Part shown: positions 1,129-19,556 of the stretch, in pieces | Position numbering within the stretch: the first letter of the stretch is position 1 | How the letters are laid out: every line of letters begins with the position of its first letter | IMG/VR virus record: IMGVR_UViG_3300032327_000792 | Length of the DNA: 64,000 nt | Source: a virus | Taxonomy: Duplodnaviria > Caudoviricetes | Strand: one strand, 5' to 3' | Notes under the pieces: model-generated | Database searches by the model: none | What the model was told of the DNA's origin: nothing | Seen by the model: the letters and a program-made list of their open reading frames with translations, nothing else | Translations under genes and position numbers: made by a program

Positions 1129-1949
1129 TGAGTTAGTCGGTTAGGGTAGTTGTTATTTTTAAATCTTTGCTGTAACTCGTCGAAGTTCAGTATGCGCCCA
1201 ATGGGTATTTTAGCACTCATTTCATCGGGATGCCAATCAGTTATTCCCCAATGTTGGCACCATTGGTCCTTATACAAAGCAAACCATTGTATAAAATCAT
1301 CAGGAATAGGTTTAGGACTTGTGGGTTGCATTGCTATGTTTAATGTAGGAATAAGATTTATCCAGGGCTTACAGACCTTGCACATAAAATCAATGTCATT
1401 GGGTTCTTGATCAAAATAGTACGTCAATGGATTCTTTCCTAGCTCTTGTTCGGTTAAAAAGCAAGTGCCCGGGATAACTGAGTGTACTGCGTATTGTAAA
1501 TAAGATCTATCAAACTTTTTGTAAAGCAATCCGGCATCGTTACGATAGTTAAACAAGATCACTGATGGTTTATTTCTGTGCTGGTTGTGTGTTTCTAATA
1601 GATGTATTGTGTCGTGGGCATAGGTCCACTTGGTATAATGTTTACGATCCTGCGTGTTACACTGTTGAAAATAGATGTCGTGTAAATAGTTTAGATAAGT
1701 TTGATTGTGTAGTTGATTAATGTCAACATCGATACCCAATTCAGTGAGCTGTGCTTGTAGTAATTGTTGAGATTGTTCAATATCATTGTTCAATGGATGG
1801 TAAGGTGTTTCTCGCGGACCAAACAATAAATCCAGTTTCTGAAGTCTACGTATGCAAGAATAATAAAAATCTGCCACTGGATTATTGGCTAACTCTAAGT
1901 CAACTGTTGTGCCATCTGTCCATTTTATTTTTAATAGTTTTGCTGTCAT
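1125..1949 (-). CDS. hypothetical phage protein (274 aa)
   Basis: Long ORF coupled to uvsW, directly behind a sigma70 promoter; no motif recognised. Confidence 0.7.
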   Translation of the reverse strand: MTAKLLKIKWTDGTTVDLELANNPVADFYYSCIRRLQKLDLLFGPRETPYHPLNNDIEQSQQLLQAQLTELGIDVDINQLHNQTYLNYLHDIYFQQCNTQDRKHYTKWTYAHDTIHLLETHNQHRNKPSVILFNYRNDAGLLYKKFDRSYLQYAVHSVIPGTCFLTEQELGKNPLTYYFDQEPNDIDFMCKVCKPWINLIPTLNIAMQPTSPKPIPDDFIQWFALYKDQWCQHWGITDWHPDEMSAKIPIGRILNFDELQQRFKNNNYPNRLTQ

Positions 1950-2054: not shown

Positions 2055-3083
2055 TTATGTTGCTTTCATACAAGTTACGCGAGCCATGTCTCTCCAACGA
2101 AGTGCAAAGCTCTTGCGTAATTGTGCTATCTTGATTGCCATACGTAGCGACACTTCACGCAATGAGTTCTTGTGCTCTTCCAAAAACTCAATCACTTCTG
2201 TCTCTGCTTCTTTGTCTAAGTCCATGTTTTCAAACAATGCACCGTCAGAAGCAATTTGTTTGATACGCAAGATCTTGTCACGCATGGTGTCCAGAGTCAA
2301 ATCCAAATAGTGACAACGACTTTGTAATGCATCCAGGTGATCCTTGAGCTTTTGGCTTTTCATCTTGTCAAACTTCAAGTTTGTGATAAAGATGATTGAA
2401 CCGTTGAAGTTAAACGAATCCGGAATTCCTTCACGACGCAAACTGCTGGATTCTGATAACCATGAAATCTTACGCTTGGAACCAGAGTCCAACGCACCTT
2501 TCAACAAGTTAAGAGCCACGTCATCTACCAAGATTGAGTCGCAATCATCAAACACCAACATACAGTTCTTGTCAGAATACTTGTACAATGTTTGATACAG
2601 GCCAATAGGTGTGGCACTACCTTTTACAACTTCTGCTCGCAATCGCTTGCCTGACAACTTGTCAAACAAACAGGCCTGTTCCACAATCTTTTCTACACCA
2701 TAACTTTTTCCCACGCCCGGGGGTCCTGACACAATCATGGCACGGATGTCGCCTGTGGTTGCTGCCTTGGTCATTTCGTCCAAGATTTGAAAACGGGTAC
2801 GAATGCGTTCAATGGCTTGCTCATCGGTTTCTTGTACAACTTCTGTATGAGCCATTGGTGCTACAAATTCACCTACAGGAACTGATTCGGCAGTAAATTC
2901 AACGTCTTCAATTGAGTCTACTTTGACACGCACTTCATCAAATTCTGGCCCAAAGTAGCCATCTGATTTAACTGTGACAAAGTTGCCCTTGGCTCCAGTT
3001 TGAAAACCTTTTACCAATTGAAAACTTACATTGGCCACAGGCTTGTTCCTATAACTGCCTGATTTAATTGTAATTGTTGACAT
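2055..3083 (-). CDS. AAA+/P-loop ATPase (probable start MSTITIK at 3083)
   Basis: Walker A GPPGVGKS, Walker B LVFDDCD, sensor-like IIFITN and SRCH; AGGAG RBS before ATG 3083. Confidence 0.8.
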   Translation of the reverse strand: MSTITIKSGSYRNKPVANVSFQLVKGFQTGAKGNFVTVKSDGYFGPEFDEVRVKVDSIEDVEFTAESVPVGEFVAPMAHTEVVQETDEQAIERIRTRFQILDEMTKAATTGDIRAMIVSGPPGVGKSYGVEKIVEQACLFDKLSGKRLRAEVVKGSATPIGLYQTLYKYSDKNCMLVFDDCDSILVDDVALNLLKGALDSGSKRKISWLSESSSLRREGIPDSFNFNGSIIFITNLKFDKMKSQKLKDHLDALQSRCHYLDLTLDTMRDKILRIKQIASDGALFENMDLDKEAETEVIEFLEEHKNSLREVSLRMAIKIAQLRKSFALRWRDMARVTCMKAT

Positions 3084-3116
3084 CTTTTTAGCTCCTACTT
3101 TAGTTAATATACTAGT

Positions 3117-3145
3117 ATTGTAACGCTGATGCCGTTTCTGGTCAA
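3117..3145 (-). promoter_or_regulatory. sigma70-type early promoter TTGACC-17-TACAAT
   Basis: -35 at 3145-3140, -10 at 3122-3117, 17-bp spacer. Confidence 0.75.
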
Positions 3146-3231
3146 CCAGAGTTGTCCATAGATCGCGCCTTAGTTTATAGCTGCGTAAGTGCTTGATTTT
3201 TAAGCGTTTTTTTATTGTTCTTTTGTTGCAG

Positions 3232-3567
3232 TTACGCAACACCGTAATACATCGCATCTAATTCTGCCATTGCTTCTGCTTGCTCACGCTCGCGTTCTTG
3301 GGACAACCACTGAGCTTGTTGGGCTAATTCTGGGTTGGGTTCTTCGATGATCCAACCTTGCTCACGCAATTGCTCACGACCTTCAAATGTCTGTTTGAGC
3401 TGGTCCATTTGATCGTGTAAAAGATTGATTTGAATCACTAGATATTGTTTACTGTTCCACTCAGTGGCGGATGCAAATCTTGGACGGAAGCCGTTGAAAT
3501 CTTTGTGTAAATCACTATAGTAACCCTGTAATTCTTCTACTGAAAAATCTTTAAATTCACGTACCAT
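3232..3567 (-). CDS. small hypothetical early protein (start MVREF at 3567)
   Basis: GGAG RBS and its own promoter; YSDLHKDFNGFRPR resembles a motif recurrent in small phage proteins. Confidence 0.7.
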   Translation of the reverse strand: MVREFKDFSVEELQGYYSDLHKDFNGFRPRFASATEWNSKQYLVIQINLLHDQMDQLKQTFEGREQLREQGWIIEEPNPELAQQAQWLSQEREREQAEAMAELDAMYYGVA

Positions 3568-3597
3568 TGTTAGCTCCAAAATCTAATTTATAACAAC

Positions 3598-3626
3598 ATT
3601 GTAACAAAAAGTCTGTTTTTGGTCAA
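3598..3626 (-). promoter_or_regulatory. sigma70-type early promoter TTGACC-17-TACAAT
   Basis: -35 at 3626-3621, -10 at 3603-3598; same GGTTGACCA...GTTACAAT frame as the 3117-3145 promoter. Confidence 0.75.
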
Positions 3627-3630
3627 CCAT

Positions 3631-3660
3631 AAAAAAACCCTTGTAAAAACAAGGGTTTGT
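3631..3660 (-). terminator. Rho-independent terminator
   Basis: AACCCTTGT-TTTT-ACAAGGGTT perfect 9-bp stem followed by a T run on the minus strand. Confidence 0.8.
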
Positions 3661-3679
3661 GATGTAATATTTTGTAGTA

Positions 3680-4396
3680 TTACGGAAGTGGTACGCCTGG
3701 CGCAATTTGAAGAGTAGCCGAAAATACATCCCCAGCTGACAATTCCCACCACCATGGTCCATTCAAATTTCCTGTACGATCAATGGGTTGGGCAACACCG
3801 TTGATAGTAGCATTGGCCCAAGTGTTACTCACTGAATCAACAAAATCGGGTAATGCTCCAAAGCCGTCGGGCCCCGAACTCAACTGGTTAATCACTGCGT
3901 TGTGAGCATTGATTATAGCCTGAACATCTGCTGGATACGGAAAACTAGTAATTGCTTGTATCTGTGCTATTTCTTCAGCGGAAAACGGAGGATTTGCAAT
4001 GTCAATTGTTACTTGTTGTTTTTGGGCAACTGTTGAATTTGGATCTGTAACAATGGCCTGTTGTGCTGGGGTCAATGCTGGGTTAAAATGCGGATCTAAA
4101 ACATAGTTTGAAATAACTGAGCCGAACCATAATGGGCCACCCGATGCCTGAATGGTTAAAGTTGCAGTACCATTATACTCAACTGGCTCGCTGATGCTGA
4201 ACAATGCTGTTTTTGATGATTCTAACTGTTGTTGTAACACGCTACGTGCATCCACGGAAACGTTTGTAACACTGATGTTTTGGTCGATTGTAGGAATTGT
4301 ACCATTGTGTACAACATTTCCGTTCAATGTAGCCACTACTGATACAGGTGTTGGGTTGTATCCTTGTCCGATTATATATATGGTTCTATTAGTCAT
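3680..4396 (-). CDS. hypothetical, probably virion-associated protein (238 aa)
   Basis: ATAAATA late motif and GGAGG RBS upstream; beta-rich N/T/V composition like the structural genes. Confidence 0.6.
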   Translation of the reverse strand: MTNRTIYIIGQGYNPTPVSVVATLNGNVVHNGTIPTIDQNISVTNVSVDARSVLQQQLESSKTALFSISEPVEYNGTATLTIQASGGPLWFGSVISNYVLDPHFNPALTPAQQAIVTDPNSTVAQKQQVTIDIANPPFSAEEIAQIQAITSFPYPADVQAIINAHNAVINQLSSGPDGFGALPDFVDSVSNTWANATINGVAQPIDRTGNLNGPWWWELSAGDVFSATLQIAPGVPLP

Positions 4397-4453
4397 GGTC
4401 TTTCCTCCATGTTTATTTATGCTGCAGATTTATTTTTGCAATCAATTGCAACA

Positions 4454-5260
4454 TTATTTCCAATTTTTTATTACCACCAAATCCTGTGTTTGATCTGGTT
4501 TGGGATCCCCGTGAAATACCAATATAGCTGTACTGTCATTGATGTTGGTGCCCGACCCTGGAGATTTCCACATTCTACGCTTGAAATCATATCCGCCATC
4601 CAAGCACTGCCAGCGCCAGCTTTTTACCAGATCTGTGTTGAAATATCTACGTTGTTGCTCCGTAATTACAGAATTAATGTAATCTTGATCTCCGTGAAAT
4701 CGTTTTATTGTTTGTGCTAGATCTAACTCTTGAAAATTACGCCATACCCAGTCAAACTGTGTGGTATCCCACCACATTATACTGGAATTAATTGATTGAT
4801 ACATTGGACGCCAAATATGCTTGAAGTCTTTGACCGCCCAAAAATGTCGGAGTTTTAATTGCCAGATCCAGTCTATGTTTTTTGTGATGACCACGTCTAA
4901 ATCAAAATATAGCAACGAGCCACGATGGTGCTCAGTGTTAAACAATTGTACTTTGTACCACCATGCTTGTTTGGGTTCAGTGATGTTCCAATCAGTTAAT
5001 TCGTGCTTGATATAAGGTGTCGGAACTGTTCTATTGCTTTCTGTGTAAACATGTAGACGCACCGGGCGAGACAGGTTTCGAGATAACATGTTATACAAAG
5101 TATCGACATATTGCCAATGATATTTGTTGCCATGGATTACACAAGCACAGTCAATAGGAGTAGTAACAGTTGGAGTTTCCAAACACGTGGGTGCAACAAC
5201 TACAGGACCATCTTTGCTGTGTCCTTTTAATTGGCGTTTTTGTTCTTTGCTTAGTGTCAA
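4454..5260 (-). CDS. GT-A fold glycosyltransferase (GT8-like); probable TTG start at 5260, not 5530
   Basis: WWYKVQLF, LYFDLDVVI (DxD), GDQDYI and VFHGDPKP motifs; the track extension overlaps the divergent gene; TAAATA lies 7 nt before TTG 5260. Confidence 0.75.
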   Translation of the reverse strand: MTLSKEQKRQLKGHSKDGPVVVAPTCLETPTVTTPIDCACVIHGNKYHWQYVDTLYNMLSRNLSRPVRLHVYTESNRTVPTPYIKHELTDWNITEPKQAWWYKVQLFNTEHHRGSLLYFDLDVVITKNIDWIWQLKLRHFWAVKDFKHIWRPMYQSINSSIMWWDTTQFDWVWRNFQELDLAQTIKRFHGDQDYINSVITEQQRRYFNTDLVKSWRWQCLDGGYDFKRRMWKSPGSGTNINDSTAILVFHGDPKPDQTQDLVVIKNWK

Positions 5261-5300
5261 GATTCTATATTTACCGTTATATACGCACATAAATATCTTT

Positions 5301-6065
5301 ATGAAAAAAATTGTATTGGTAACAGGTGGGTTTGACCCAGTCCATAGCGGACACATAGCGTATTTTAAATCTGCACGATCAATGGGCGATATGCTGATTG
5401 TGGGCTTAAACAGTGATGAATGGTTGGAACGCAAAAAAGGTCGAGCATTCATGCCCTGGAACGAACGTTTGTGTATTGTCAATAACTTGGCCATGGTCGA
5501 TGAAGTGTACACATTTGATGATGAAGACAACAGTGCCCGACATTTTATTCAACAGGTGCGAGCACACTACCCTGCGTCAGAGTTAATTTTTGCCAATGGC
5601 GGTGACCGAACTCAAGACAACATACCAGAAATGGATGTAGTAGATTCAAATTTGACTTTTGCGTTTGGAGTTGGCGGATTCAATAAAGCTAATTCTAGTT
5701 CGTGGATCCTTGAAGAATGGAAAGCACCCAAGACAGAAAGACAATGGGGATACTATCGAGTGTTACACGAAACTGCTGGTATGAAGGTAAAAGAACTCAC
5801 TGTGAATCCTGGATGCAGTTTAAGTATGCAACGACACTGGAAACGTGCTGAGTATTGGATTGTGAGTGAAGGTAGTTGCGTAGTCAACATGCGGATGGAT
5901 GGCGGCTATCAGTTGCCCAGTGTTCAATTGAACAAACACCACAGCCACAAAATACATGTTGCTGAATGGCATCAGCTGACCAATCCTGGTGATGTACCGT
6001 GTAGAATTGTAGAAGTGCAATATGGTGAAAACTGCCGTGAAGAAGACATTGAAAGACAAGCATGA
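5301..6065 (+). CDS. RfaE-II/HldE-like nucleotidyltransferase fused to a mannose-6-phosphate-isomerase-type cupin
   Basis: TGGFDPVHSGH (HxGH), GLNSDEWL.RKKG and ANGGDR; C-terminal WGYYRVL...VKELTVNPGCSLSMQRHWKRAEYWIV...WHQLTN cupin. Confidence 0.85.
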   Translation: MKKIVLVTGGFDPVHSGHIAYFKSARSMGDMLIVGLNSDEWLERKKGRAFMPWNERLCIVNNLAMVDEVYTFDDEDNSARHFIQQVRAHYPASELIFANGGDRTQDNIPEMDVVDSNLTFAFGVGGFNKANSSSWILEEWKAPKTERQWGYYRVLHETAGMKVKELTVNPGCSLSMQRHWKRAEYWIVSEGSCVVNMRMDGGYQLPSVQLNKHHSHKIHVAEWHQLTNPGDVPCRIVEVQYGENCREEDIERQA

Positions 6066-6748
6066 TCCCTATTCCAATCTTTGTTGGATATGATCCGAGA
6101 GAAGCTGTGGCCTATCATACCTGCGCTAACTCAATTATTAGACAGGCCAGTCAACCTGTGGCCATTGTGCCTTTGGCATTGAATTTGTTCACGGACTACA
6201 ACGAAACACACACAGATGGTAGCAATCAGTTTATCTACAGTAGATTTTTAGTTCCGCATTTAATGGGCTACTCGGGCTGGGCTATCTTTATAGATGGTGA
6301 CATGATTGTGCGTGACGACATTGTCAAACTTTGGAACTTACAGAAAAGCCACGTTGACGTTATGGTGGTCAAGCATGATTACAAAACACGAATGACTGAA
6401 AAATATCTTGGTTCCAAGAATGAAGACTATCCACGTAAAAATTGGTCGAGTGTGATACTGTGGAACTGTGCCAATCATCCCAACAGAAAGCTAACTCCAG
6501 AATTTGTCCAACAAGCCACTGGAGCATACCTACATCGGTTTAGTTGGATTGACGACAACCGTATTGGAGAACTACCTCCGGAATGGAACTGGTTGCCCGA
6601 CGAATACGGTGCCAACCCCGATGCCAAACTGCTACACTACACACTGGGTGCACCATGCTTTCACGAGTTTGCCACAACACCACAAGGTGACGAGTGGCAT
6701 CGCGAACACATGTTGGCTGACTATTGTTTGCAACGATCTACAGATTAA
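6062..6748 (+). CDS. glycosyltransferase, CDI-like/GT8-related
   Basis: IFVGYDPREAVAY, FIYSRFLVP, FIDGDM (DxD), YPRKNWSS, LLHYTLGAP. Confidence 0.8.
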   Translation: MIPIPIFVGYDPREAVAYHTCANSIIRQASQPVAIVPLALNLFTDYNETHTDGSNQFIYSRFLVPHLMGYSGWAIFIDGDMIVRDDIVKLWNLQKSHVDVMVVKHDYKTRMTEKYLGSKNEDYPRKNWSSVILWNCANHPNRKLTPEFVQQATGAYLHRFSWIDDNRIGELPPEWNWLPDEYGANPDAKLLHYTLGAPCFHEFATTPQGDEWHREHMLADYCLQRSTD

Positions 6749-7386
6749 ATCCAGTGAGCCTGGACCAATGAATGATAGCCCATGGTGCTGGGCTTTTGTG
6801 ATACTTTTCTAAACAGCAACATTTTTATCTGACTGAGATCTCTGCGTACATCTTTGTGGCTTGCTATGTGAAACCACTCCGCAGGGCAATGATCAGTGAG
6901 TACAGTGTGTGGAGTGTACTCACTGATGATAGCTTGATCACCATACAAAGGCGGAACGCTATACAATGACTCCCAATGGCTCAGTGGCTTGTTGACGAAT
7001 GTATTCCAGAGATTGCTGTGATCTCCGTGCCAATACATAAATGCACTGGAGTGTATGTTTTTATCTGCTTCAATCCACATCACAAATTGTTTGTGTTGAA
7101 TACGATCAATTATGTCATCAAGGTTGCCACAAATCACAGTGTCTAAATCTAAATACAAGGATGGACCTGTGAGTGCGCCAGGTTTGAACAGTTGCATTTT
7201 TGACCAAAATCCATAATCACCCGATTCAAGTTCAATTCTTTCACAGTTGACCGCACAGTCACTGAAACAAACAAATCGATGTGGTTGGGTTAAATTGCGT
7301 TGAACACCACGTTGTAATTTGTCAACCCATTCAGCTGTGTAACCTACTTTGCCGCCTTGGCGCAACACACATACAACGTTAAGCAT
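6745..7386 (-). CDS. GT-A glycosyltransferase, paralogue of 4454-5260
   Basis: FWSKMQLF, LYLDLDTVI, GDQAII. Confidence 0.75.
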   Translation of the reverse strand: MLNVVCVLRQGGKVGYTAEWVDKLQRGVQRNLTQPHRFVCFSDCAVNCERIELESGDYGFWSKMQLFKPGALTGPSLYLDLDTVICGNLDDIIDRIQHKQFVMWIEADKNIHSSAFMYWHGDHSNLWNTFVNKPLSHWESLYSVPPLYGDQAIISEYTPHTVLTDHCPAEWFHIASHKDVRRDLSQIKMLLFRKVSQKPSTMGYHSLVQAHWI

Positions 7387-7918
7387 AGCGTTCTAGTACC
7401 ACTAGTCCAGAGCCCCGATTACAGTGTTCTATGATATGCCATTCATGATTGTAATGCAAAAATGTAATCACGGCCTCAAACACTCCAGGCCACTCGGTGG
7501 GATCGTGAAGCACAATATACTTTTGAGCACGACAAGCATGACGATCTAACTCTGCCAAACAATGTTTTTTGGTATGCACAGTATCAATAAAAAGTAAATC
7601 GCAAGGCTCAATTTCTATTTCCAGACTGTTGGCTATGGCAAATTCAAAGTCAACACCACTGGTATTGGCACAATGTTTTAGTTCATCCAATATAGACAAG
7701 TAGGTGTCTGTGATATCATAACTGCGTAATTTTTTTGGACTGCCAGATAACCAGGCACAGGTACTGAGTCCGGTGTAAACACCAAACTCAACTATGCTGT
7801 CAACTTGGCTGGCATATCGTTGATAGGTATCAAACCGATCTGGACTATCGCCTAGCCAAGCAATGGGTTGAATTTTTAGTTCAATGAAATCTTTTCGAAG
7901 TTCTTGTAAGTTTCTCAT
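7379..7918 (-). CDS. class I SAM-dependent methyltransferase (start MRNLQ at 7918)
   Basis: VEFGVYTGLST, DLLFIDTVH, YIVLHD. Confidence 0.75.
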   Translation of the reverse strand: MRNLQELRKDFIELKIQPIAWLGDSPDRFDTYQRYASQVDSIVEFGVYTGLSTCAWLSGSPKKLRSYDITDTYLSILDELKHCANTSGVDFEFAIANSLEIEIEPCDLLFIDTVHTKKHCLAELDRHACRAQKYIVLHDPTEWPGVFEAVITFLHYNHEWHIIEHCNRGSGLVVLERYA

Positions 7919-7922
7919 AATT

Positions 7923-8606
7923 TTAACCAGCATATTTGTAAACAGTGTCGTGAACCCACGCAACGTGAATTTCATAATTCCACGATTTTAACAGATTGTT
8001 AATTTTTTCTTGTGACCAGCCATATTCATCACCGCTGCCATTTGTTTCCAACACAATCAATGGCCGTGATTTGGCAATGGTTTCTTTGGCTCCTAGCAAC
8101 GCAAATGCTTCAAATCCTTCTATGTCTAAATGTATTAAATCTGGATCTAGATTCAATGAATCAATTGTGATTTGTTTTATATTGCCGTGCCCTTTTATTT
8201 TTAATGCACCAGTGTTGGTTTCATTCCATCTTGGGTTGGTTTCTAGTTCAATCATTGATTCTATATCACCTAAGGCTGCTTGATACTTTACAACATTTTC
8301 TTCTGGAACATTGCGACACAAACAAGTAAAGTTTCTATGGTCTGGTTCTAGTGTTACAACTGATCGAAACAGTCGACTATACTGTTTGGGATAAAGTCCA
8401 GCATTGCCGCCGGCCTGAACAACTAAGTTTTTACGTTCACACAAGCAGGCAATTTGAACAGGCAAATCCCAATGCCCTATTTTGTTTAACCATTTCCATG
8501 CCCAGATATCTTCGCTAGGCCACAACCATGCTCCAGAATGCCTACGGCTTTCTCTATATTCTAAACCCAGCAATTCATCGGTATCTTGCACCCTGTGTTC
8601 CTTCAC
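7923..8606 (-). CDS. FkbM-family methyltransferase (true start may be GTG 8591)
   Basis: VQAGGNAG, LEPD, AALGD, IHLDIEGFE...LLGA...RPLIVLE. Confidence 0.85.
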   Translation of the reverse strand: MKEHRVQDTDELLGLEYRESRRHSGAWLWPSEDIWAWKWLNKIGHWDLPVQIACLCERKNLVVQAGGNAGLYPKQYSRLFRSVVTLEPDHRNFTCLCRNVPEENVVKYQAALGDIESMIELETNPRWNETNTGALKIKGHGNIKQITIDSLNLDPDLIHLDIEGFEAFALLGAKETIAKSRPLIVLETNGSGDEYGWSQEKINNLLKSWNYEIHVAWVHDTVYKYAG

Positions 8607-8635
8607 TATAAATAAACGACTACTATTATTTATTC
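8607..8635. promoter_or_regulatory. divergent pair of T4 gp55-type late promoter motifs
   Basis: TATAAATA on + at 8607-8614 and ATAAATA on - at about 8627-8633, between divergent genes. Confidence 0.55.
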
Positions 8636-8638
8636 ACC

Positions 8639-9481
8639 ATGAAAGCCTACATAATTTACCTTCCAGACCGTGAACACAGCGTAACGCACAGTGCGTACAT
8701 GTTGGAGACACTAAAGTCATATGGACTAGACGCTTACTTGCACAAAGGTGTACCCGGTGATCATGCGGTAAAACTTGCTGCCAGATCCAAAAAAACTCTG
8801 TATCCTTACAGCATTAAAAATCGCACCATCAACGACGCAGATCTTAAAAGACTAATTCGTCCTGAATTATACGAAGAATTCAAAAAAAGATATCACTACA
8901 CAATCATTGAACGTCAACTGATTGGCGAAAATCACATAGGCAAACTAAGTCGTCCTGGGGTAGTCGGATGTTTTTACAGTCATTATTCATTGTGGGAAAA
9001 ATGTGTTCAACTCGGCGAACCTATAATGATCTTTGAAGACGATGTTAAGTTTTATCGAGGTTGGAATCCTATATCGTTCACCGGTGTTTTAATATTGAGT
9101 CTTGGAAAATCAAGTTTTTTAACTGAGCCCAACAAAACTTATTTGGAAAATCCCACTGGTGTGCCACGTGCAGTACCATGGAGAAATTTCAGCATGCCCG
9201 GTGCCAGTGGATACGCTCTTACCCCAGACGCAGCTCTGGGCTTGATCAAGTTTTATAGACCTTATTGGTATCCTGCAGACAATGCTATCAATCAGTACAT
9301 TACACCCATGTACATACACAACTATATCATGGGCCGAAACACATTGCCCGAAGAAGGCAATATATCCATGACCAAGTCAAAGGATTGGAATCAAGCAATG
9401 GGGACTGAAATAGTCGACAATGACTACAAAGAACTGGTTATTACTGCATCAACCGATCCCGGCACCGAGATTGATCAATGA
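8639..9481 (+). CDS. glycosyltransferase family 25-like
   Basis: AYIIYL..R, GCFYSHY.LW, MIFEDD, PADN. Confidence 0.85.
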   Translation: MKAYIIYLPDREHSVTHSAYMLETLKSYGLDAYLHKGVPGDHAVKLAARSKKTLYPYSIKNRTINDADLKRLIRPELYEEFKKRYHYTIIERQLIGENHIGKLSRPGVVGCFYSHYSLWEKCVQLGEPIMIFEDDVKFYRGWNPISFTGVLILSLGKSSFLTEPNKTYLENPTGVPRAVPWRNFSMPGASGYALTPDAALGLIKFYRPYWYPADNAINQYITPMYIHNYIMGRNTLPEEGNISMTKSKDWNQAMGTEIVDNDYKELVITASTDPGTEIDQ

Positions 9482-10398
9482 AAGTAGGAATATTTTATAA
9501 CTCTATTAGCAATCCGGCTAAGTTTTCAAACAAAGTGATGTTAATGGACAACTTTCAAGCTGGAGTCATAAGTCAAGGCGATGAAGTAGTTGAATATAGA
9601 GAAAATACATTACCAGATCAGCCTCTGGATGCTGGCTTTGTATTGGGCTATACACTTGAAGATAACTTTAGAAAAAAAATTATCAACAGTTTAAAAGCTC
9701 AAAAAACTCCACAGGTGTTTGTGGACAGCAACATTTTACACTATGCAAGAAAAGAACACGAGTGGCATCGTTATAGTTTGAACAGTGTGTATCCCAACGA
9801 TGGTGCATATTTCTTTCAGGCATTAGATCGTTCTAAATGGACAACATACAGCCAATGGCATGGTGTTGAACTGCAACCTTGGAGAACTGGAGCCAACGGA
9901 CAACACATATTGATCCTGTGTCAGCGTCCCAAAGGTTGGAATATGTTTGGCAATGATCAGGATGCCTGGTTGGACAAGATGATAGACAAGATTCGCAAGA
10001 TTGAGCGTAAACGTCCAATTGTGGTTCGCATGCATCCGGGTGATGGTTCAAGATTTAAACAGATTGAAAAATTACAAAAAAGGTATGGTGCCAGTATCAA
10101 AATCTCCAACCAAGATAACATTAGAGAAGATTTGGTCAACTGTTGGTGCACTGTGGGCTACAACTCTACTCCCAATGTGATTGCTGCTATTGAAGGCGTG
10201 CCTGGATATATAGAGGATCCGCAACATAGTTGGGTTGCTGACGTGGCATTCACTGACCTTGCTCACTTACTACAGCCACCCTTGCCTGGGCGCAATGAGT
10301 GGATTCACAAAATTGCCAACATACACTGGAGCAATGAAGAAGTACGCACTGGTCAACTATGGTCGGCTATTAAGACGTATATTTCTGCTTCTCGTTGA
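9478..10398 (+). CDS. putative GT-B/capsule-polysaccharide-modification-like protein
   Basis: VVRMHP, TVGYNST...AAIEGVP; similar architecture to 11190-12023. Confidence 0.5.
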   Translation: MKVGIFYNSISNPAKFSNKVMLMDNFQAGVISQGDEVVEYRENTLPDQPLDAGFVLGYTLEDNFRKKIINSLKAQKTPQVFVDSNILHYARKEHEWHRYSLNSVYPNDGAYFFQALDRSKWTTYSQWHGVELQPWRTGANGQHILILCQRPKGWNMFGNDQDAWLDKMIDKIRKIERKRPIVVRMHPGDGSRFKQIEKLQKRYGASIKISNQDNIREDLVNCWCTVGYNSTPNVIAAIEGVPGYIEDPQHSWVADVAFTDLAHLLQPPLPGRNEWIHKIANIHWSNEEVRTGQLWSAIKTYISASR

Positions 10399-11167
10399 CA
10401 AAAACTTCTAGATCTTTTCTAGTACCTTTGGCAGTCCAGATATAACTGCTGGGTTGCATGTTCCAGTCAATGTATTCTGTTGGTAAATTTTCCCAACGAT
10501 ATTGCGGTACCAAGTCTGTCAACACGTCTTGATCAATTCCCCAATGTAAATTATCCAGTTCAATGTTGTTTTTTAATACAGCAACATACTGTTTTAAAAA
10601 TGCATAACCTTGGGTGTTGCCGGTTAGATACAAACCCCCGGCCAAAAATCTAGCCTTGCGTCCAGAGATATAGTGTATGTAAAAATCTTTGCTGTTGTCG
10701 AATTCTGGAAAACTTCTGCGCACAACAGCATCAATGTCTATGGCCAGCAATCGAGTGGTGGGTTGAATCAACTGTTGCAATCGAATAAATCTTGCAGAAG
10801 CAAAGTAGGTTCGTTGTATTCGCTGTTGTATGCTGGTATCACGGCCTTTGGTCATTGCAGTCAAAATTCTTTTGCGGCGATCTGCCATCTCTGGATCTGT
10901 AGGTACTGTTGCCCATTTCTCAGACGCTGTTTTAAACAACTCCAAAGGAACCTGCTCGTATGTGATACTGACACGTTGGATTGATCTACAATATGAAATT
11001 TGCTCTGGAGTAGGATTGTACAAGTGTAGATGTACACCAAACTGAGTATTTTTAAGCGCACTGCGGATCAATGCTGGACCGAATTCAGTGAAATAGTCGC
11101 AATCGCAGGCAACATAGATAAAGAATGATGGCTGGTCAAGGTTTCCGAGCAGTGGTGGAATAATCAT
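10370..11167 (-). CDS. nucleotide-diphospho-sugar transferase-like (GT-A)
   Basis: ASARF, LAIDIDAVV (DxD), WGIDQDVL, IWTAKG. Confidence 0.65.
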   Translation of the reverse strand: MIIPPLLGNLDQPSFFIYVACDCDYFTEFGPALIRSALKNTQFGVHLHLYNPTPEQISYCRSIQRVSITYEQVPLELFKTASEKWATVPTDPEMADRRKRILTAMTKGRDTSIQQRIQRTYFASARFIRLQQLIQPTTRLLAIDIDAVVRRSFPEFDNSKDFYIHYISGRKARFLAGGLYLTGNTQGYAFLKQYVAVLKNNIELDNLHWGIDQDVLTDLVPQYRWENLPTEYIDWNMQPSSYIWTAKGTRKDLEVFVNEKQKYTS

Positions 11168-11168
11168 A

Positions 11169-11180
11169 TTAAATATTTAA
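11169..11180. promoter_or_regulatory. palindromic bidirectional late promoter TTAAATATTTAA
   Basis: Perfect 12-bp palindrome that gives TAAATA on both strands between divergent starts 11167(-) and 11190(+). Confidence 0.6.
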
Positions 11181-11189
11181 CTATAAATT

Positions 11190-12023
11190 ATGCGTGTAAG
11201 TATTTTTGATCAGTATGGAGCTTTGAACAGTGCGCCAATCTTTGCCGCTATTCGTGCTGGTCTTGATCACATAGGTATTGAACATACCAGCATGGATAGC
11301 TCAGCCGATGTGGCTGTGATCTGGAGTCTGCTGTGGGCCGGACGAATGAAGCCCAATCAACAGATATGGGAACTGTACCGATCTACTGGGCGTCCTGTGA
11401 TTGTGGCAGAAGTAGGAATGTTGCGACGTGGCTTTACCTGGAAACTGGGCATCAACGGTACAGGGTTGACTGCTGACTATGGTCAAGAATTAATAGCCAA
11501 TCGTGCCAGTGCATTGGGACTCAGTACAAAACCTTGGAGCAACGCAGGATACAACATTGTGATTGCGTGTCAACGCAGTGACAGTGAGCAGTGGGTCGGA
11601 CAACCACCTACGGTTGCATGGTTGACAGAAACTGCACGCAAGATCAGACAATACAGTGACAAGCCCATGGTAATACGTCCGCATCCAAGACAGCGCATTG
11701 CCGACATTCCAGGTTGTGTTATTGAAAGCCCTCAACCTATTCCAGGCACCTACGACAGTTTTAATTATGATCAGTGTCTTAAAACAACATGGGCCGTGAT
11801 CAATCACAACTCAGGGCCTGGAGCTCAGGCCATTTTAAATGGTGTGCCGGCATTTGTTGGAGCCACAAGTTTGGCAGCGCCAGTGGGTAATGCAGACATT
11901 GCTGATATAGAAAATCCACTGCGTCCTGATAGAACACAATGGATTGAACAACTAGCGCACACTGAATGGACTATGCCAGAAATTGAATCTGGTATTCCAT
12001 TGTTGCGTTTATTGAAGCCCTAG
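11190..12023 (+). CDS. putative GT-B/capsule-polysaccharide-modification-like protein
   Basis: VIRPHPR, VINHNS.PG..AILNGVP, paralogous to 9478-10398. Confidence 0.5.
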   Translation: MRVSIFDQYGALNSAPIFAAIRAGLDHIGIEHTSMDSSADVAVIWSLLWAGRMKPNQQIWELYRSTGRPVIVAEVGMLRRGFTWKLGINGTGLTADYGQELIANRASALGLSTKPWSNAGYNIVIACQRSDSEQWVGQPPTVAWLTETARKIRQYSDKPMVIRPHPRQRIADIPGCVIESPQPIPGTYDSFNYDQCLKTTWAVINHNSGPGAQAILNGVPAFVGATSLAAPVGNADIADIENPLRPDRTQWIEQLAHTEWTMPEIESGIPLLRLLKP

Positions 12024-12767
12024 GTGAGACAAGCTCTTGTCGAGCCAAGACACAATCAATTCGTGTTGGCGTAGTTCCCCGTGACGCTGAACACATTCAT
12101 CCGCGGATTCGGGCAACAGTTTTCGATCAGCTAACTCATACCACGTGGTTGTTTTTGGATTCATCGGCATGTGAGAACTTTTGTACACCACTGCACTTAA
12201 CCATGGATTGTTTGACTCTTTTTTAAAAAATCCTGATCTACAATCCCACCCGGCAACCGCCAGCATATGAATCAAACTGACCATGGTGTGATGGTAATAC
12301 ACACCGTTGGGCTGATTGAACACTTGTTGTCTGGCTTGATAATTTGTTGTTTGTGGAACAACAATTGCCAACATGGCGCCATCACTGGCAATATTCCACC
12401 ATTTGCTTAGAGTTCCTATTGGATCTAGAGCATACTGGAAAGAATCATGACACCATAGCACATCAAACAATGTTTTCTGTTTGGGTATGATTGTGGTTTC
12501 AAAGTCCACGGATTGATATGTAATGTTTGAATATTTTTTTGCTATTGTCAACTGAGGGGCTAAATCGACTCCAATACAATCAATATTCAGCGGCTGAGGA
12601 GTGTCTTCTCTTGTGGTGCGAGTAGCCCACCATTCTAAATCTAAGCCAGAGCCACAACCTAGATCTACCAAGGTTCCGATACTGGCCATGAAATCGTCGT
12701 ATTCGTACAACATGTTCAACGTGTTTAAACTATGTGCGTGACTTTCTTCTGCGTTTCGAAATGTCAT
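12009..12767 (-). CDS. class I SAM-dependent methyltransferase (start MTFRN at 12767)
   Basis: LVDLGCGSG, FDVLWCHDSFQY; ATGA-coupled to uvsY. Confidence 0.85.
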   Translation of the reverse strand: MTFRNAEESHAHSLNTLNMLYEYDDFMASIGTLVDLGCGSGLDLEWWATRTTREDTPQPLNIDCIGVDLAPQLTIAKKYSNITYQSVDFETTIIPKQKTLFDVLWCHDSFQYALDPIGTLSKWWNIASDGAMLAIVVPQTTNYQARQQVFNQPNGVYYHHTMVSLIHMLAVAGWDCRSGFFKKESNNPWLSAVVYKSSHMPMNPKTTTWYELADRKLLPESADECVQRHGELRQHELIVSWLDKSLSHLGLQ

Positions 12768-13216
12768 ATTGTGATATCCTCCATTCCTGCTGTGCGTAAT
12801 CTCACAATGTGCCCCATTTGCCATTGTTTGGCATCTAACCCTTTGAGTATGCCCAGCCACTTGTTGCGTAACAGTGCTACTTCGTTGATAATGGTTTCAA
12901 AGTCAATGACTTCGTCTTCGCCGTCTACGTACTTTTCAGCATCGCGACTGGTCAGTGCTCTAGCATATGCTTCCAAATATTTTTGAAAGTGTCGACGACG
13001 AATTTTACGTAATTGTATATTGAGAAAGTTAAGCACCGCTTCAATTTCTTGTAACTGATTGAAACGATGCTCAGTGATACCCGGCAACGCAGAGATGTTT
13101 TTCTCTACCAAGCCACCTATTCTACAATCACGCTTGGCATCTCCTAACTCTCGTTCGTAGTGTTGAATAAAATCAGGAATGTTGCCCAACGATGCTACAA
13201 CTTTGCTATACCACAT
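12764..13216 (-). CDS. uvsY: UvsY-like recombination mediator protein
   Basis: Helical ~150 aa with LTSRDAEKYVDGEDEV and LKGLDAKQWQMGHIVRLR.AG.ED C-terminus typical of UvsY; near uvsX. Confidence 0.8.
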   Translation of the reverse strand: MWYSKVVASLGNIPDFIQHYERELGDAKRDCRIGGLVEKNISALPGITEHRFNQLQEIEAVLNFLNIQLRKIRRRHFQKYLEAYARALTSRDAEKYVDGEDEVIDFETIINEVALLRNKWLGILKGLDAKQWQMGHIVRLRTAGMEDITI

Positions 13217-14495
13217 AATTATCCATATATTGTTTTTCAATCTCTATAAGCCAAGGAAACAACTCTCGCCAGTTTGTGCCACGGCGTTGATCTTTTTCAT
13301 TTATGTATATTAACATTTTTTTGATTTCTTGCCAATCTCTTTGGTGATTAGCAATGCCCTTTCCTATACCTTCGATGTAGTTACAAATCACCTGATCCTC
13401 GTCAGTATCAATTGGCATGGCAGACACTATCTTTTGAAAATCTTCCTCAAACACACCAGGTCCAAAATGTTTGGGTATAAAATAAGATGGGTCTGGGGAT
13501 ATAGTTCCGCTATATAGACTTACATGACGAACCTGTCTCCACTCTTTTAATTTATGCATAAGTTCGGGCGCAGTTTTAATAGTCAGAGGACTAAAGACTT
13601 GATTCAATGCCAGTTTGATCCATTTTTGATCCAATAGATATCGAAAATTTTTCTCCCAGTGTACCAGGTCCAGTCCATATCTTACATATTCTTGTTGGGG
13701 GCCCCAACAATCAATACTGGCAAGAATTTGTAAACTTTTGAGTTTACGATTGATCAACAATTTCCTAATTTTAACAATGTACTTTTCTAACAATGCCGGC
13801 GGGATCATCAAATTAGAAACTATATTTAATTCACAATCTGCATTAGGAAACTGATCTACATAGTCTAAAATTTTGTCAAATTCTTTTTGAAAAAAAGGTT
13901 CTCCGCCTAGTATGTTCAGGCGGCGCAGATATTTAAACTCTTTTTCAAACCATTGTTGAAATGCAGGTAACAAATCTGTATAGCGAGGCTCCTCGACAAC
14001 CTCAAGAGCTGCGAATTCAATTTCCTGAATTTTAGATTGCCCAAAGCGACGATTTTCGTTGTTGATTGTACTACTCAGATCTGGAGAACAATACAAACAA
14101 CTTAGTTGACAGGTATTGTTTAAAAAAACTTCAACTACCACTGGTTTTATTTCTACAGCAGTAGAATTTTGATCTAATTCCCGAGGATACATATTTGGTA
14201 TGCTTAGATGCCACAATCGATCACTTACGCCACCAGCTGCCTCAATTTCTTTACAGTAATGGCATGTTGCTCCTTGTTTACCGCCGGGCCATTCGCCGGC
14301 TAACATTTTTTTTCTGTCTGCTATTTTTTCTGGAGTATTGTGGAAGTTATGAAAGTTTTCAGGAGTTAATTTACTTTCACTAGAGCGATAACACGACCTA
14401 GTGATACCAGAATTGAGTAGCAAGGTGCTCCAACTCCATTTGAGTTGGCAAGCGGTTTCAGTGTTAATAGGAAAGAATTTTTTTTCAGATGTCAT
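13206..14495 (-). CDS. radical SAM protein with an N-terminal twitch-like Cys region
   Basis: CQLSCLYC (CxxxCxxC), ILGGEPF, SIDCWG..QEYVRYG; N-terminal CQLKW...SCY...CHYC. Confidence 0.9.
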   Translation of the reverse strand: MTSEKKFFPINTETACQLKWSWSTLLLNSGITRSCYRSSESKLTPENFHNFHNTPEKIADRKKMLAGEWPGGKQGATCHYCKEIEAAGGVSDRLWHLSIPNMYPRELDQNSTAVEIKPVVVEVFLNNTCQLSCLYCSPDLSSTINNENRRFGQSKIQEIEFAALEVVEEPRYTDLLPAFQQWFEKEFKYLRRLNILGGEPFFQKEFDKILDYVDQFPNADCELNIVSNLMIPPALLEKYIVKIRKLLINRKLKSLQILASIDCWGPQQEYVRYGLDLVHWEKNFRYLLDQKWIKLALNQVFSPLTIKTAPELMHKLKEWRQVRHVSLYSGTISPDPSYFIPKHFGPGVFEEDFQKIVSAMPIDTDEDQVICNYIEGIGKGIANHQRDWQEIKKMLIYINEKDQRRGTNWRELFPWLIEIEKQYMDNYVV

Positions 14496-15640
14496 TGTGT
14501 TTGATTGACCCAGTCTATAAATGAGGTTGGAAATATCTGTAACGATAAATTTCTTCTTCTTGCAAATTCTTTAATGTAAGTTACAAAATTTAATTTCTGT
14601 TGCTTACTGTATCCACTGTCTAGTGCTGTTTTAATCAACGAATCGTTCCATTGATACTTAGTTAATTTTAGATTGGCAACGGAGTCTGAATCCATTACTC
14701 CAACAGCAAGATAATCAGGATCGTTACAAAACTGTACTGTGTTGTTGTCTTGTCCAAACTGATCTTCGAATTGTTGATATCCAAATAGTGTGAGATTAGT
14801 CAGAGTGACGGAAAATCTATACGGTATACCATGTTGTTTGATAATCTCCATATTTTTCAAAAAGTTCTGATAAGAATTTCCATACCGAACAAACTCATAC
14901 AAATCACCAGTGGATTCCCCGCTGATTACTAAACTTATATTGCTTTTTAATTTGTCAAGAATGGCAGAAAATCTCACTGGGTTAACTCCTAATCCTGTGA
15001 AAATTTCTATCGGACTTGAAAACTTATTTGTTAGTTCTTCTAGCCCGTTATACAAAAAAGGCTCTCCGCCGGTAATAGATATTGACCTTAGATTTTTGAG
15101 TTGCTCAGTTGAATCTAAAATGACTTTGACTACTTGACTGTTTTTAAGCTGTTTCTGCCCAAGAGCTTCAATGATACGATCTTCAATATTGATTGTGTAT
15201 CGTGCATCATTTAGATAAGATCCATTGGTCTGTATGTCTTTGTACCATGCGTTGCTATATTGTTTGCAACAATAAACACAAGTCATATTGCAGGCTGTAC
15301 TCAGTACAATGTTTAATACCTCGGGCTCGGCATAGACTGCATTGTGTGTTTGAACTTGACCATTCATGCTCGTTCGACGACTTACAGCCAACTGATCTTC
15401 TGCGGCCCAACAATTGGCTTCACATGAAGCCACACGAACTCCATTGAGCATATTTTCTCGATCTTGTACTAATTCCGGAGTATTAAATATTTTTTCTGGA
15501 TTTTGTTCAAGCCATTTTGTATTAATTGTGTAAGGACTGGCAGAACAACATGATGAAAGATTTTTACGTTCTAAATTTACAGTCAACCACCAAAATTTTT
15601 GATTACAATAAAAATCTTTAATAATCGTTTTCGTCTTCAT
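14492..15640 (-). CDS. radical SAM protein with an N-terminal twitch-like region (start about 15640)
   Basis: CNMTCVYC, ITGGEPF, YEFVRYG; N-terminal YCNQKF...SCC...CEANC. Confidence 0.9.
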   Translation of the reverse strand: MKTKTIIKDFYCNQKFWWLTVNLERKNLSSCCSASPYTINTKWLEQNPEKIFNTPELVQDRENMLNGVRVASCEANCWAAEDQLAVSRRTSMNGQVQTHNAVYAEPEVLNIVLSTACNMTCVYCCKQYSNAWYKDIQTNGSYLNDARYTINIEDRIIEALGQKQLKNSQVVKVILDSTEQLKNLRSISITGGEPFLYNGLEELTNKFSSPIEIFTGLGVNPVRFSAILDKLKSNISLVISGESTGDLYEFVRYGNSYQNFLKNMEIIKQHGIPYRFSVTLTNLTLFGYQQFEDQFGQDNNTVQFCNDPDYLAVGVMDSDSVANLKLTKYQWNDSLIKTALDSGYSKQQKLNFVTYIKEFARRRNLSLQIFPTSFIDWVNQTQ

Positions 15641-15872
15641 CATACTCGTCTTCGTAGTCTTCCTCGTCGTCCTCGTCGGCATGATCATCAAGATACTGTT
15701 TGAGTGCTTGCTTGACTTCGCTGTCGCTTTTAAACGCAGATTTGATTTCTTCGACACTGACGTCGTTGTCAATCAATACACTGACCAATGCTTCGGCAGC
15801 TTCGGCACGATCCATGCCGTTGACGTAACGTTTGATTTCTTGCCAAACTTCATTTGCTAATTCTACTGCCAT
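15618..15872 (-). CDS. small acidic hypothetical protein directly downstream of uvsX
   Basis: 84 aa with D/E-rich tail DDHADEDDEEDYEDEYDEDENDY. Confidence 0.75.
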   Translation of the reverse strand: MAVELANEVWQEIKRYVNGMDRAEAAEALVSVLIDNDVSVEEIKSAFKSDSEVKQALKQYLDDHADEDDEEDYEDEYDEDENDY

Positions 15873-15873
15873 A

Positions 15874-16938: not shown

Positions 16939-16939
16939 G

Positions 16940-19016: not shown

Positions 19017-19556
19017 TTACAACGGTCCCAGTGATATATCTGGAATTGTTAGCCCATTATTGTTGGCAAGATCCAGCAAGTTTACCAATGTTTTTGCCCA
19101 GTTATTGACATCAGCTGCTGGTGGAACAGTTTTGTCTAAACTGGTAGCTATGTTACCAGGACGAACTATGGTAATTTTTACACCAAGTCGACGGTTTCGT
19201 ATTTGTCTTACCGATTCCTCAAGTGTTACTTTTTGTATTCTATATTGATCCATGTCTAACCCCGGTAGCGTTGATACTGGATCTTGAGTCATCATAGTGC
19301 TGATCACAATGATATGTTTTTTTGTTCCTTGCCAACGTTGAGCCATTTCAAACAACAACTCAGTTTGTGCATATCCAGCTTGTGCATTGTTAACAAAAAT
19401 ATCGCATGGCTCAATTTGATCACAAATCTTGGGTGTATTCCTAATATTATTGCCTTCGCGTTTACTCAAACCAATGATCTCATAACCGTTGAGAGAGTAT
19501 TCTTGTGCAAGAGCTTGTCCTATACCCGCAGTATGTCCAGTGATTGCTATTTTCAC
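19017..19556 (-). CDS. short-chain dehydrogenase/reductase
   Basis: ITGHTAGIG Rossmann motif, FVNNA, YRIQK (YxxxK). Confidence 0.85.
   Translation of the reverse strand: MKIAITGHTAGIGQALAQEYSLNGYEIIGLSKREGNNIRNTPKICDQIEPCDIFVNNAQAGYAQTELLFEMAQRWQGTKKHIIVISTMMTQDPVSTLPGLDMDQYRIQKVTLEESVRQIRNRRLGVKITIVRPGNIATSLDKTVPPAADVNNWAKTLVNLLDLANNNGLTIPDISLGPL

Follow-up and report, generated by a model that had tools for sequence, protein, structure and literature searches.

A probable late-promoter-driven glycan biosynthesis island with a hypervariable middle slot in an uncultured T4-related jumbo phage

What does a lytic phage build with seven glycosyltransferases, at what stage of infection, and on which acceptor? 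The question is raised by ten genes (g02–g11) at positions 4454–12023 of IMG/VR record IMGVR_UViG_3300032327_000792, a 64,000-nucleotide stretch of tailed-phage DNA that was analysed as a whole and is referred to below as the window. Glycosylation by virus-encoded enzymes has been well described in giant viruses of algae and amoebae and in a few mycobacteriophages; to our knowledge, it is undocumented for T4-like phages of Gram-negative hosts. We have high confidence that these genes form a glycan island driven by late promoters, and the island is probably virus-encoded glycosylation machinery in which a hypervariable middle slot is combined with late-promoter wiring.

The large terminase of the phage (24314–25891, minus strand) is 50% identical to that of the Pseudomonas jumbo phage PA5oct and to the terminases of PA5oct relatives. 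The window holds a 1115-residue tail sheath protein and other T4-type virion genes, together with genes for gp32, UvsX, UvsY, and a UvsW-like helicase, and a protein identical to that of g09 is on record within a contig of 310,159 bases. Judged by this gene content, the phage is an uncultured, lytic, T4-related jumbo myovirus. The island fills the gap between uvsY and uvsW, two genes that adjoin in T4. A nucleotide search with the island against 50,697 phage records gave no match. Using g09 as the query, we retrieved 55 related IMG/VR loci (L001–L055), three of which come from genomes of 300–349 kb, and questions on the genome scale were addressed with three related IMG/VR genomes that are near-complete (81%, 97%, and 99%). 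The present phage does not belong to the Bacteroidota-associated "moraphage" lineage of PMC12619734.

The ten genes form six transcription units (g02; g03–g04; g07–g06–g05; g08–g09; g10; g11), each headed by the hexamer TAAATA, with three divergent junctions between them. The original prediction had described divergent units behind TAAATA motifs at about 5268–5295, 8607–8635, and 11169–11180, and boxes were indeed located at all three junctions. Between g02 and g03, two back-to-back boxes, 5273→5268 on the minus strand for g02 and 5290–5295 on the plus strand for g03, are separated from the starts by spacers of 7 and 5 nucleotides, which are too short for a ribosome-binding site. Between g07 and g08 lies a second back-to-back pair, TATAAATA at 8607–8614 (plus strand, core 8609–8614) for g08–g09 and 8632→8627 (minus strand) for g07–g06–g05; the former is the sole full T4 octamer consensus in the window. 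The g10/g11 junction carries the palindromic bidirectional box TTAAATATTTAA (11169–11180), which serves g11 as 11170–11175 on the plus strand and g10 as 11179→11174 on the minus strand. This palindrome consists of two overlapping boxes facing in opposite directions, with the two start codons just 22 nucleotides apart, and more than 30 distinct relatives retain it; in some relatives the same junction has two separate boxes instead.

TAAATA occurs in 45 copies in the window, and 22 of the 45 lie in the sense orientation no more than 45 nucleotides upstream of a start, a space that makes up 2.25% of strand positions (binomial P = 1.4e-24). For control AT-rich hexamers the number of such upstream copies was 0–9, with the maximum for AATAAA, which itself overlaps the box. 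The motif also precedes the sheath gene, tail genes, and other genes of the virion module. A box is carried by 7 of 11 island genes (the six unit heads and the adjacent g01), whereas all 14 replication and recombination genes of the flanks lack one (Fisher P = 7e-4), and the frequency of boxes does not differ between the island and the virion module (P = 0.30).

The core of the signal is TAAATA with A or C preferred at position −1. Two classes of spacer can be distinguished, one of 14–35 nucleotides, often with GGAG-like sites, and one of 4–7 nucleotides without room for a ribosome-binding site. The latter comprises about ten sites, including those at 5260–5301, 11167–11190, 31373–31384, 35233–35243, 41382–41392, and 62972–62983, and its geometry implies that messages from these boxes, among them those of the g02, g03, and g10 units (5–7 nucleotides), would be nearly leaderless.

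Comparison of distinct relatives shows how the box is inherited. It is kept before g03 in 26 of 28 cases, before g10 in 30 of 32, before g11 in 32 of 36, and before g07 in all nine, and it never occurs before the internal genes g05, g06, and g09 or before g12, which abuts the island. Before g08 the box is found in 17 of 17 loci with a divergent upstream neighbour and in 0 of 15 with a co-directional one, and g04 has a box in precisely those loci that lack g03 or have g04 at the head of a unit for another reason. Across the 55 related loci the box thus follows the first gene of the unit and not a particular gene; this comparison is the strongest evidence for the promoter, and together with the enrichment it leads us to consider TAAATA a real signal.

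In T4, late promoters of the form TATAAATA are recognised by gp55 together with gp33 and the gp45 clamp. The present lineage shares with T4 an A/T-rich −10-type box without a −35 element, its placement ahead of virion genes, and a gp55-family sigma factor next to SbcD/gp47. A gp55-type late sigma factor is encoded in all three near-complete genomes (in genome G001, the open reading frame matches phrog_12791 at 1e-75 and phrog_234 at 2e-23), and in these relatives its gene adjoins that of the SbcD/gp47 homologue. Unlike in T4, the conserved core is only TAAATA, some ten sites stand as little as 4–7 nucleotides from the start, and the island junctions have back-to-back or palindromic bidirectional boxes. 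The comparative footprints thus define the late promoter of this lineage, including its near-leaderless and bidirectional forms.

A scan of positions 3000–16000 for the sigma70 consensus gave 28 weak sites against 33.9 expected from shuffled sequences, and the one match of 9/12, at 8602–8629 (plus strand) in the g07/g08 gap, has its −10 hexamer within the reverse late box. The claim that the island lacks a sigma70 promoter is therefore essentially true. As for the island being late-promoter-driven, the promoter type is that of the virion genes and is backed by the comparative footprints; the late timing itself we infer from the promoter type and from the gp55 homologue in the relatives. It might be supposed that TAAATA is no more than an AT-rich word between genes or a feature of ribosome loading, and that unrecognised promoters drive early or constitutive expression of the island, given that the core has just six bases, that a single full T4 octamer is present, and that a weak sigma70-like match lies in the g07/g08 gap. 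We regard this as highly improbable in view of the strand-specific placement in the sense orientation, a bias that other AT-rich hexamers do not have, the absence of the box before flanking replication genes and internal operon genes, its relocation with the unit head, and the gp55-type sigma factor of the relatives.

The convergent gene pairs g04/g05 (6745–6748), g09/g10 (10370–10398), and g11/g12 (12009–12023) overlap at their 3′ ends and leave no room for a terminator. Antisense overlap is therefore to be expected at these sites if late transcription arrives from both directions.

The gene order in the relatives reveals a conserved frame around a mosaic centre: uvsY, (g12), g03, g04, the slot, g08, g09, g10 on the opposite strand, g11, g02, a variable small late gene, an AAA ATPase gene, and the UvsW gene. 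In the window the slot is occupied by g05–g06–g07; elsewhere it contains other methyltransferases, NAD-dependent sugar epimerase/dehydratases, GT2, GT8, or GT32 glycosyltransferases, a polysaccharide pyruvyl transferase, or nothing at all. A second variable stretch, from uvsY to g03, carries a UDP-sugar dehydrogenase gene in some relatives. By analogy, such swapping of slot contents resembles the diversification of O-antigen loci and other surface-glycan loci.

Most relatives have the frame genes running in the direction of the flanks, with the start of g02 overlapping the 3′ end of g11, to which it is translationally coupled. The window and eight relatives (L001–L006, L028, and L046) instead have the block g03..g11 inverted relative to the flanks, as follows from comparison with L007, L008, L024, and others. 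In the inverted lineages a separate TAAATA stands just ahead of the g02 start; a box lies directly before g02 wherever this gene is divergent, and solely where an inversion has uncoupled it from g11. On the pattern among these loci, the gain of a box by g02 after the inversion shows selection to keep the gene under late control. The breakpoints of the inversion showed no inverted repeats. The head-to-head arrangement of the original prediction is thus present at three junctions, but it is partly the product of a lineage-specific inversion, which accounts for one of the three; most relatives are mostly co-directional.

Pfam, PHROG, and NCBIfam matches together with structural models confirmed the inventory proposed earlier, namely, five glycosyltransferases of the GT-A/GT25 type (g02, g04, g05, and g10 of the GT8 type and g08 of the GT25 type), two GT-B-like paralogues (g09 and g11), two methyltransferases (g06 and g07), and a nucleotidyltransferase–cupin fusion (g03). 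All ten products are predicted to be soluble enzymes; none of them has a hydrophobic segment (maximum 19-residue Kyte–Doolittle mean of 1.45) or a signal peptide.

Among the GT8-clan enzymes with a GT-A fold, g02 (4454–5260, minus strand; phrog_1962 "glycosyltransferase", 2.5e-15) and g05 (6745–7386, minus strand; phrog_1962, 1.4e-21) are paralogues (blastp E = 4e-9, hhalign 100%). The latter belongs to the variable slot and is absent or replaced in many relatives. The start of g02 is probably the TTG at 5260, 7 nucleotides past the box, rather than 5530, as judged by the starts in relatives. The motifs DLD, GDQ, and FHGxPKP are invariant in this family, and its profile has a weak match to the Skp1 alpha-galactosyltransferase 6mw5 (E = 0.019); with the motifs present and the profile matches weak, the assignment of both proteins to GT8 is probable, not proven. 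The g04 gene (6062–6748, plus strand), which is coupled to g03, encodes a GT8 enzyme (PF01501, 28.2 bits against a cut-off of 24.3; phrog_28018) with 68–91% identity in the relatives and belongs to the invariant frame of the island.

The fourth GT8-clan enzyme, g10 (10370–11167, minus strand), is a retaining GT-A-type transferase by its model, with an invariant D144-x-D146, and in every relative its gene stands alone as a unit on the opposite strand. No sequence-level match to it was found. The g10 model (predicted local distance difference test score, pLDDT, 94) best matches LgtC, LARGE1, glycogenin, GlyE, and other retaining enzymes of the GT8 clan (E = 6e-7 and weaker). Searches of the PDB with the single sequences of g09, g10, and g05 gave nothing useful, and profile searches gave weak matches; the fold assignments of g09 and g10 therefore rest on AlphaFold 2 (AF2) models. 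The assignment of g08 (8639–9481, plus strand) to GT25 of the lipopolysaccharide (LPS) or lipooligosaccharide (LOS) type is supported by PF01755 (4e-15, 56.6 bits against a cut-off of 24).

Two of the slot genes encode methyltransferases. The product of g07 (7923–8591, minus strand) is an FkbM methyltransferase (PF05050, 36.9 bits with a cut-off of 22.7; TIGR01444, 58.8 bits with a cut-off of 37.7; phrog_8156), the start of which is probably the GTG at 8591, with a conserved AAGGAA ahead of it. The product of g06 (7379–7975, minus strand) is a probable class I S-adenosylmethionine (SAM) methyltransferase, its score for PF13578 (Methyltransf_24) being 25.8 bits, just below the cut-off of 26.3.

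The g03 gene (5301–6065, plus strand; PF01467 CTP_transf_like, 6e-13; PF01050 MannoseP_isomer, 2e-23) encodes an N-terminal HIGH-type nucleotidyltransferase (TIGR02199 at 4.6e-22, below cut-off) fused to a C-terminal cupin of the type II mannose-6-phosphate isomerase kind (TIGR01479 at 4.5e-21, below cut-off). The nucleotidyltransferase domain is nearest to heptose-1-phosphate adenylyltransferase, ethanolamine-phosphate cytidylyltransferase, and glycerol-3-phosphate cytidylyltransferase (PDB 3elb, 5x9q, and 1coz), and the two-domain layout is common to more than 8000 environmental homologues. These affinities suggest that g03 probably makes an activated sugar or alcohol donor.

The picture is more complex for g09 (9478–10398, plus strand) and its paralogue g11 (11190–12023, plus strand; 28% identity, blastp E = 4e-16, hhalign 100%). 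Neither belongs to a Pfam, NCBIfam, or PHROG family, and of their 849 homologues none is named. The AF2 model of g09 (pLDDT 88.9) has as its top matches the retaining beta-transferases of 3-deoxy-D-manno-octulosonate (Kdo), KpsC, WbbB, and KrkA (Foldseek E = 3e-7). In VIA-align, Z was 14.0–14.3 for KpsC and WbbB and about 12 for KrkA, with no more than 11.3 for other GT-B-type chains (10–11 for generic GT-B); the best alignment (Z = 14.3) covers 254 residues with a root-mean-square deviation of 4.0 Å.

The hallmarks of families GT99, GT107, and GT140 are a (K/R)xHP motif, which binds cytidine monophosphate (CMP), and an invariant QXXXD motif, the Gln of which binds the Kdo carboxylate and the Asp of which is the covalent nucleophile (PMC10148158, PMC12887879). 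The first motif is kept in both phage proteins (R-x-H186-P187 in g09; VRMHP in g09 and IRPHP in g11), is invariant in 27 sequences, and is aligned by the family hidden Markov model (HMM) with the HP motif of WbbB. The Gln is also invariant in the family, g11 included; in g09 it is Gln149, 37 residues before the His, compared with 38 in KpsC by the published peptide. The Asp is not present: at Q+4 the g09 clade has Gly and the g11 clade Ser, the equivalence of Q+4 with the nucleophile position being derived from motif context and spacing.

Compared with KpsC (GT107), the N-terminal module of WbbB (GT99), and KrkA (GT140), g09 thus has the same modified GT-B architecture, the (K/R)xHP motif, and the Gln of QXXXD, the two motifs being spaced by 37–38 residues in g09, KpsC, and WbbB alike. 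Unlike them, g09 and g11 have Gly or Ser in place of an absolutely conserved Asp, are smaller (277–306 residues), lack a membrane anchor, and are phage-encoded. The model and the motifs indicate that both proteins most likely bind a CMP-linked acidic sugar. Because the Asp nucleophile has been lost, we exclude them from GT99, GT107, and GT140; they are most likely not canonical retaining Kdo transferases, and we predict that double displacement as described cannot operate in them. Genes of the KdsB/NeuA type (PF02348) and KdsA genes (PF00793) were looked for in the relatives and not found, so that the donor would be host-made, with CMP-Kdo as the obvious candidate.

Chromosomal homologues of g09 also exist in Allorhizobium and Agrobacterium vitis, where they neighbour GT25 and GT4 genes; they have weak, sub-threshold matches to TIGR04396 and the BFO_1060 family. 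The name BFO_1060 appears in a paper on Tannerella pseudaminic and legionaminic acid transferases (PMC5420450). On the chromosome of Allorhizobium taibaishanense (L062, 5784–11488), a homologue of 345 residues lies among three unnamed genes, a GT25 gene, and a GT4 gene, and this locus may be of the LPS-core type.

On this basis, we propose that the soluble cytoplasmic enzymes of the island would assemble a short, branched, methylated, and probably acidic oligosaccharide. Four retaining GT8-clan transferases, one GT25 transferase, and two KpsC/WbbB-fold transferases using a CMP-linked acidic sugar such as CMP-Kdo would act together, drawing on host UDP-hexoses, host CMP-Kdo, and an activated donor made by g03, and the two SAM methyltransferases would methylate the product. 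Each unit would start at TAAATA as the lineage version of the T4 late promoter, read by the gp55-type sigma factor, and the acceptor would be a phage-made, probably virion, protein. We infer the donors, the product, and the acceptor, like the timing, from the genes. That so many transferases would suffice for a branched, O-methylated oligosaccharide, as stated in the original prediction, holds: seven transferases and the methyltransferases could make one.

We give an even chance to the acceptor being a virion protein or another phage protein. This reading is drawn from the late promoter shared with particle genes, the solubility of the proteins, the diversification resembling that of glycan loci, and a cassette in Caulobacter phages. 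In phage CcrPW, gp134–gp137 (L060, MH588545.1, 107144–110110) comprise two proteins of the g09/g11 family, a g04-like GT8 enzyme (gp136, HMM E = 9e-47 to g04), and an FkbM methyltransferase; of the four, just the methyltransferase has an annotation other than hypothetical. The cassette stands directly after tail-fibre and tail genes and before the lysozyme gene, and homologues are also present in CcrColossus, CcrBL9, CcrSC, and the Pelagibacter phage Mosig. The transferase genes are thus placed after tail-fibre genes in CcrPW and between uvsY and uvsW in the present lineage. Since related cassettes exist in cultured Caulobacter phages, the question of the acceptor is experimentally approachable.

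Several observations weigh against a virion acceptor under late control. The neighbours of the island are replication and recombination genes (gp32, uvsX, uvsY, and uvsW) with no virion gene among them, the evidence for a gp55 homologue comes from relatives and not from the genome of the window itself, and no Ser/Thr-rich or otherwise obvious acceptor gene is linked to the island, g01 being without a recognisable family. In addition, all the enzyme families found (GT8, GT25, the Kdo-transferase fold, and the heptose-adenylyltransferase-like domain) are typical of LPS core assembly, and the bacterial g09 homologue of Allorhizobium lies beside GT25 and GT4 genes.

The last two points make the host lipid A-core a serious alternative acceptor, although we consider it rather unlikely. 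The enzymes would then work on the cytoplasmic side of the inner membrane and decorate lipid A-core or another lipid-linked glycan with Kdo-like, hexose, and methyl groups, the host MsbA and Lpt systems would export the product, and receptors would be masked against the adsorption of progeny or competitors to infected or lysed cells. The RfaE-II-like nucleotidyltransferase completes an LPS core pathway set, phage export machinery would be unnecessary, and the variability of the slot could follow differing host cores. However, the island proteins are predicted to be soluble and lack the membrane-anchoring segments typical of KpsC (PMC10148158), late virion-type promoters leave little time for new LPS to reach the surface, and the cassette of the Caulobacter phages sits between tail-fibre and lysis genes. 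A self-contained O-antigen or capsule pathway can be ruled out since the island encodes no membrane protein, and no flippase, polymerase, ABC exporter, or initiating transferase was present in it or in the variant slots sampled from the 55 relatives. The lysogenic-conversion O-antigen system that the original prediction disfavoured is accordingly unlikely, all the more so for a lytic jumbo phage of the T4 type. Hypermodification of DNA, in which the transferases would build a glycan on a modified base after replication for protection from host nucleases, appears improbable to us, despite the location of the island among replication and recombination genes and near four radical SAM genes and the reports of GT8-like phage GT-A enzymes related to WaaJ/WaaO and of Kdo and heptose adducts on 5-hydroxymethylcytosine (10.1101/2023.12.21.572611). 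Known routes to glycosylated bases need a ThyA homologue or a C5-methylase with a TET-like oxygenase (PMC13326640; 10.1101/2023.12.21.572611). A ThyA homologue (PF00303) and a C5 cytosine methylase (PF00145) are absent from the three near-complete relatives, in which positive controls were detected, and this disfavours DNA as the acceptor; no 5mYOX enzyme and no Tet/JBP dioxygenase (PF12851) was found there, in a search without a positive control. Moreover, known DNA glycosyltransferases resemble T4 beta-GT or JGT, neither of which is among the matches listed for the g09 and g10 models, and seven transferases far exceed the need of any DNA glycan known to us. The earlier argument that late timing favours the virion or the envelope over DNA does not stand on timing alone, since post-replicative glycosylation of DNA is also late (PMC13326640); what speaks against DNA here is the absence of ThyA and the C5-methylase from the relatives.

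We give little credence to another cytoplasmic acceptor, such as a small molecule, a glycolipid, a free oligosaccharide, or a protein of the phage or host outside the virion, which would serve host takeover or yield a product resembling an osmolyte or a storage compound. Many cytoplasmic proteins are substrates of GT8-clan enzymes (glycogenin, Skp1, and the targets of bacterial toxins), and no acceptor gene is identifiable, but diversification of the slot is typical of exposed, recognised glycans and not of metabolic products, and late promoters shared with the virion genes fit poorly with such a role.

If the acceptor is indeed a virion protein, precedents exist. Capsid and tail-tube proteins of mycobacteriophages (Che8, Corndog, and Myrna) are substrates of phage-encoded transferases (Freeman et al. 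2023, cited in PMC12619734). The systems of mycobacteriophages, the chlorovirus PBCV-1 enzyme A064R with related enzymes, and the fibril glycan clusters of Megavirinae (PMC9614988) combine soluble GT-A enzymes, methyltransferases, and sugar-nucleotide enzymes, are expressed with particle genes, and vary in content between clades, a likeness drawn here at the level of genes. In contrast to them, the present island lies in a module of recombination genes and not by capsid or tail genes, and its enzyme set is of the LPS-core type with Kdo-transferase-fold members. Bacterial loci for the LPS core and LOS outer core use the same families (GT8 enzymes WaaI/J and LgtC, GT25 enzymes of the Lic2/LpsA type, and distal Kdo transferases such as Rhizobium LpcB, named in PMC11103875), and the island differs from them in being phage-borne, driven by late promoters, and without membrane-associated partners. 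Clusters for sugar hypermodification of phage DNA likewise have multiple transferases and sugar-activating enzymes, lie near replication genes, and act late (PMC13326640; 10.1101/2023.12.21.572611); the difference lies in the missing ThyA homologue and C5-methylase.

Should the product sit on the particle, the surfaces of lake phages would carry diversifying glycans, with effects on adsorption, decay, grazing, and recognition by host defences; the frame of the island is conserved across hundreds of uncultured lake phages, while its slot is hypervariable. It is conceivable, though we hold it doubtful, that g09 and g11 represent a new, mainly phage-borne, Asp-free family of the KpsC fold, for example, inverting transferases of alpha-Kdo or nonulosonic acids, and that together with the GT8 and GT25 enzymes they coat virion proteins with an LPS-core-like methylated acidic glycan. 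The phage particle would then display a hypervariable imitation of a bacterial surface glycan, and KpsC-fold enzymes without the Asp would extend, by a further mechanistic branch, a transferase group whose known members have so far all been retaining Kdo transferases. Added to the original prediction by the present analysis are the tracking of unit heads by the promoter, the inversion with the gain of a promoter by g02, the location between uvsY and uvsW, the cassette of the Caulobacter phages, and the finding that genes of the CMP-Kdo pathway were not detected in the relatives.

Two genes at the borders of the island should be noted. Downstream of g02 lies g01 (3680–4396, minus strand, 238 residues), which is preceded by a separate TAAATA at 4414–4419 and by GGAGGA as a strong ribosome site. 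Neither Pfam, PHROG, nor Atlas features matched its product, and no fold match was obtained, the Atlas model being poor; g01 is poorly conserved, and other small genes occupy the same position in the relatives. Its membership in the island is uncertain, and it may be an acceptor or partner. At the opposite end, g12 (12009–12767, minus strand; PF08241, PF08242, and PF13489) encodes a third class I SAM methyltransferase, has no late box, and is present in about one-third of the relatives, which makes it a doubtful member.

The fixed boundary on this side, outside the island, is the uvsY homologue (12764–13216, minus strand; 150 residues, 58–93% identity in relatives, phrog_231 at 1e-13). The start of g12 is an ATGA overlap with the uvsY stop (12764–12767), by which a methyltransferase of the small-molecule type is translationally coupled to the recombination mediator; a start at 12860 was rejected, as the uvsY alignment shows that stretch to be uvsY coding sequence. 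Because of this overlap and the absence of a box, g12 is probably expressed with the recombination genes.

Beyond uvsY, four radical SAM genes (13206–14495, 14492–15772, 17869–19014, and 19553–20428, all on the minus strand) are interspersed with uvsY, uvsX (15874–16977), and genes without an assigned family, and lie downstream of gp32 (21084–22070). The first two are paralogues (E = 1.5e-12). None of the four has a start-proximal TAAATA; one box, at 22203–22208, lies 133 nucleotides upstream of gp32.

Outside the island on the other side, good promoters of the sigma70 type are found, in contrast to the late boxes of the island. One of them, TTGACC-17-TACAAT with an extended TG (3598–3658, minus strand), stands ahead of the gene at 3232–3567, just past a strong terminator hairpin (3658–3635), and another, TTGACT-17-TATACT, precedes the gene at 1125–1949 (minus strand).

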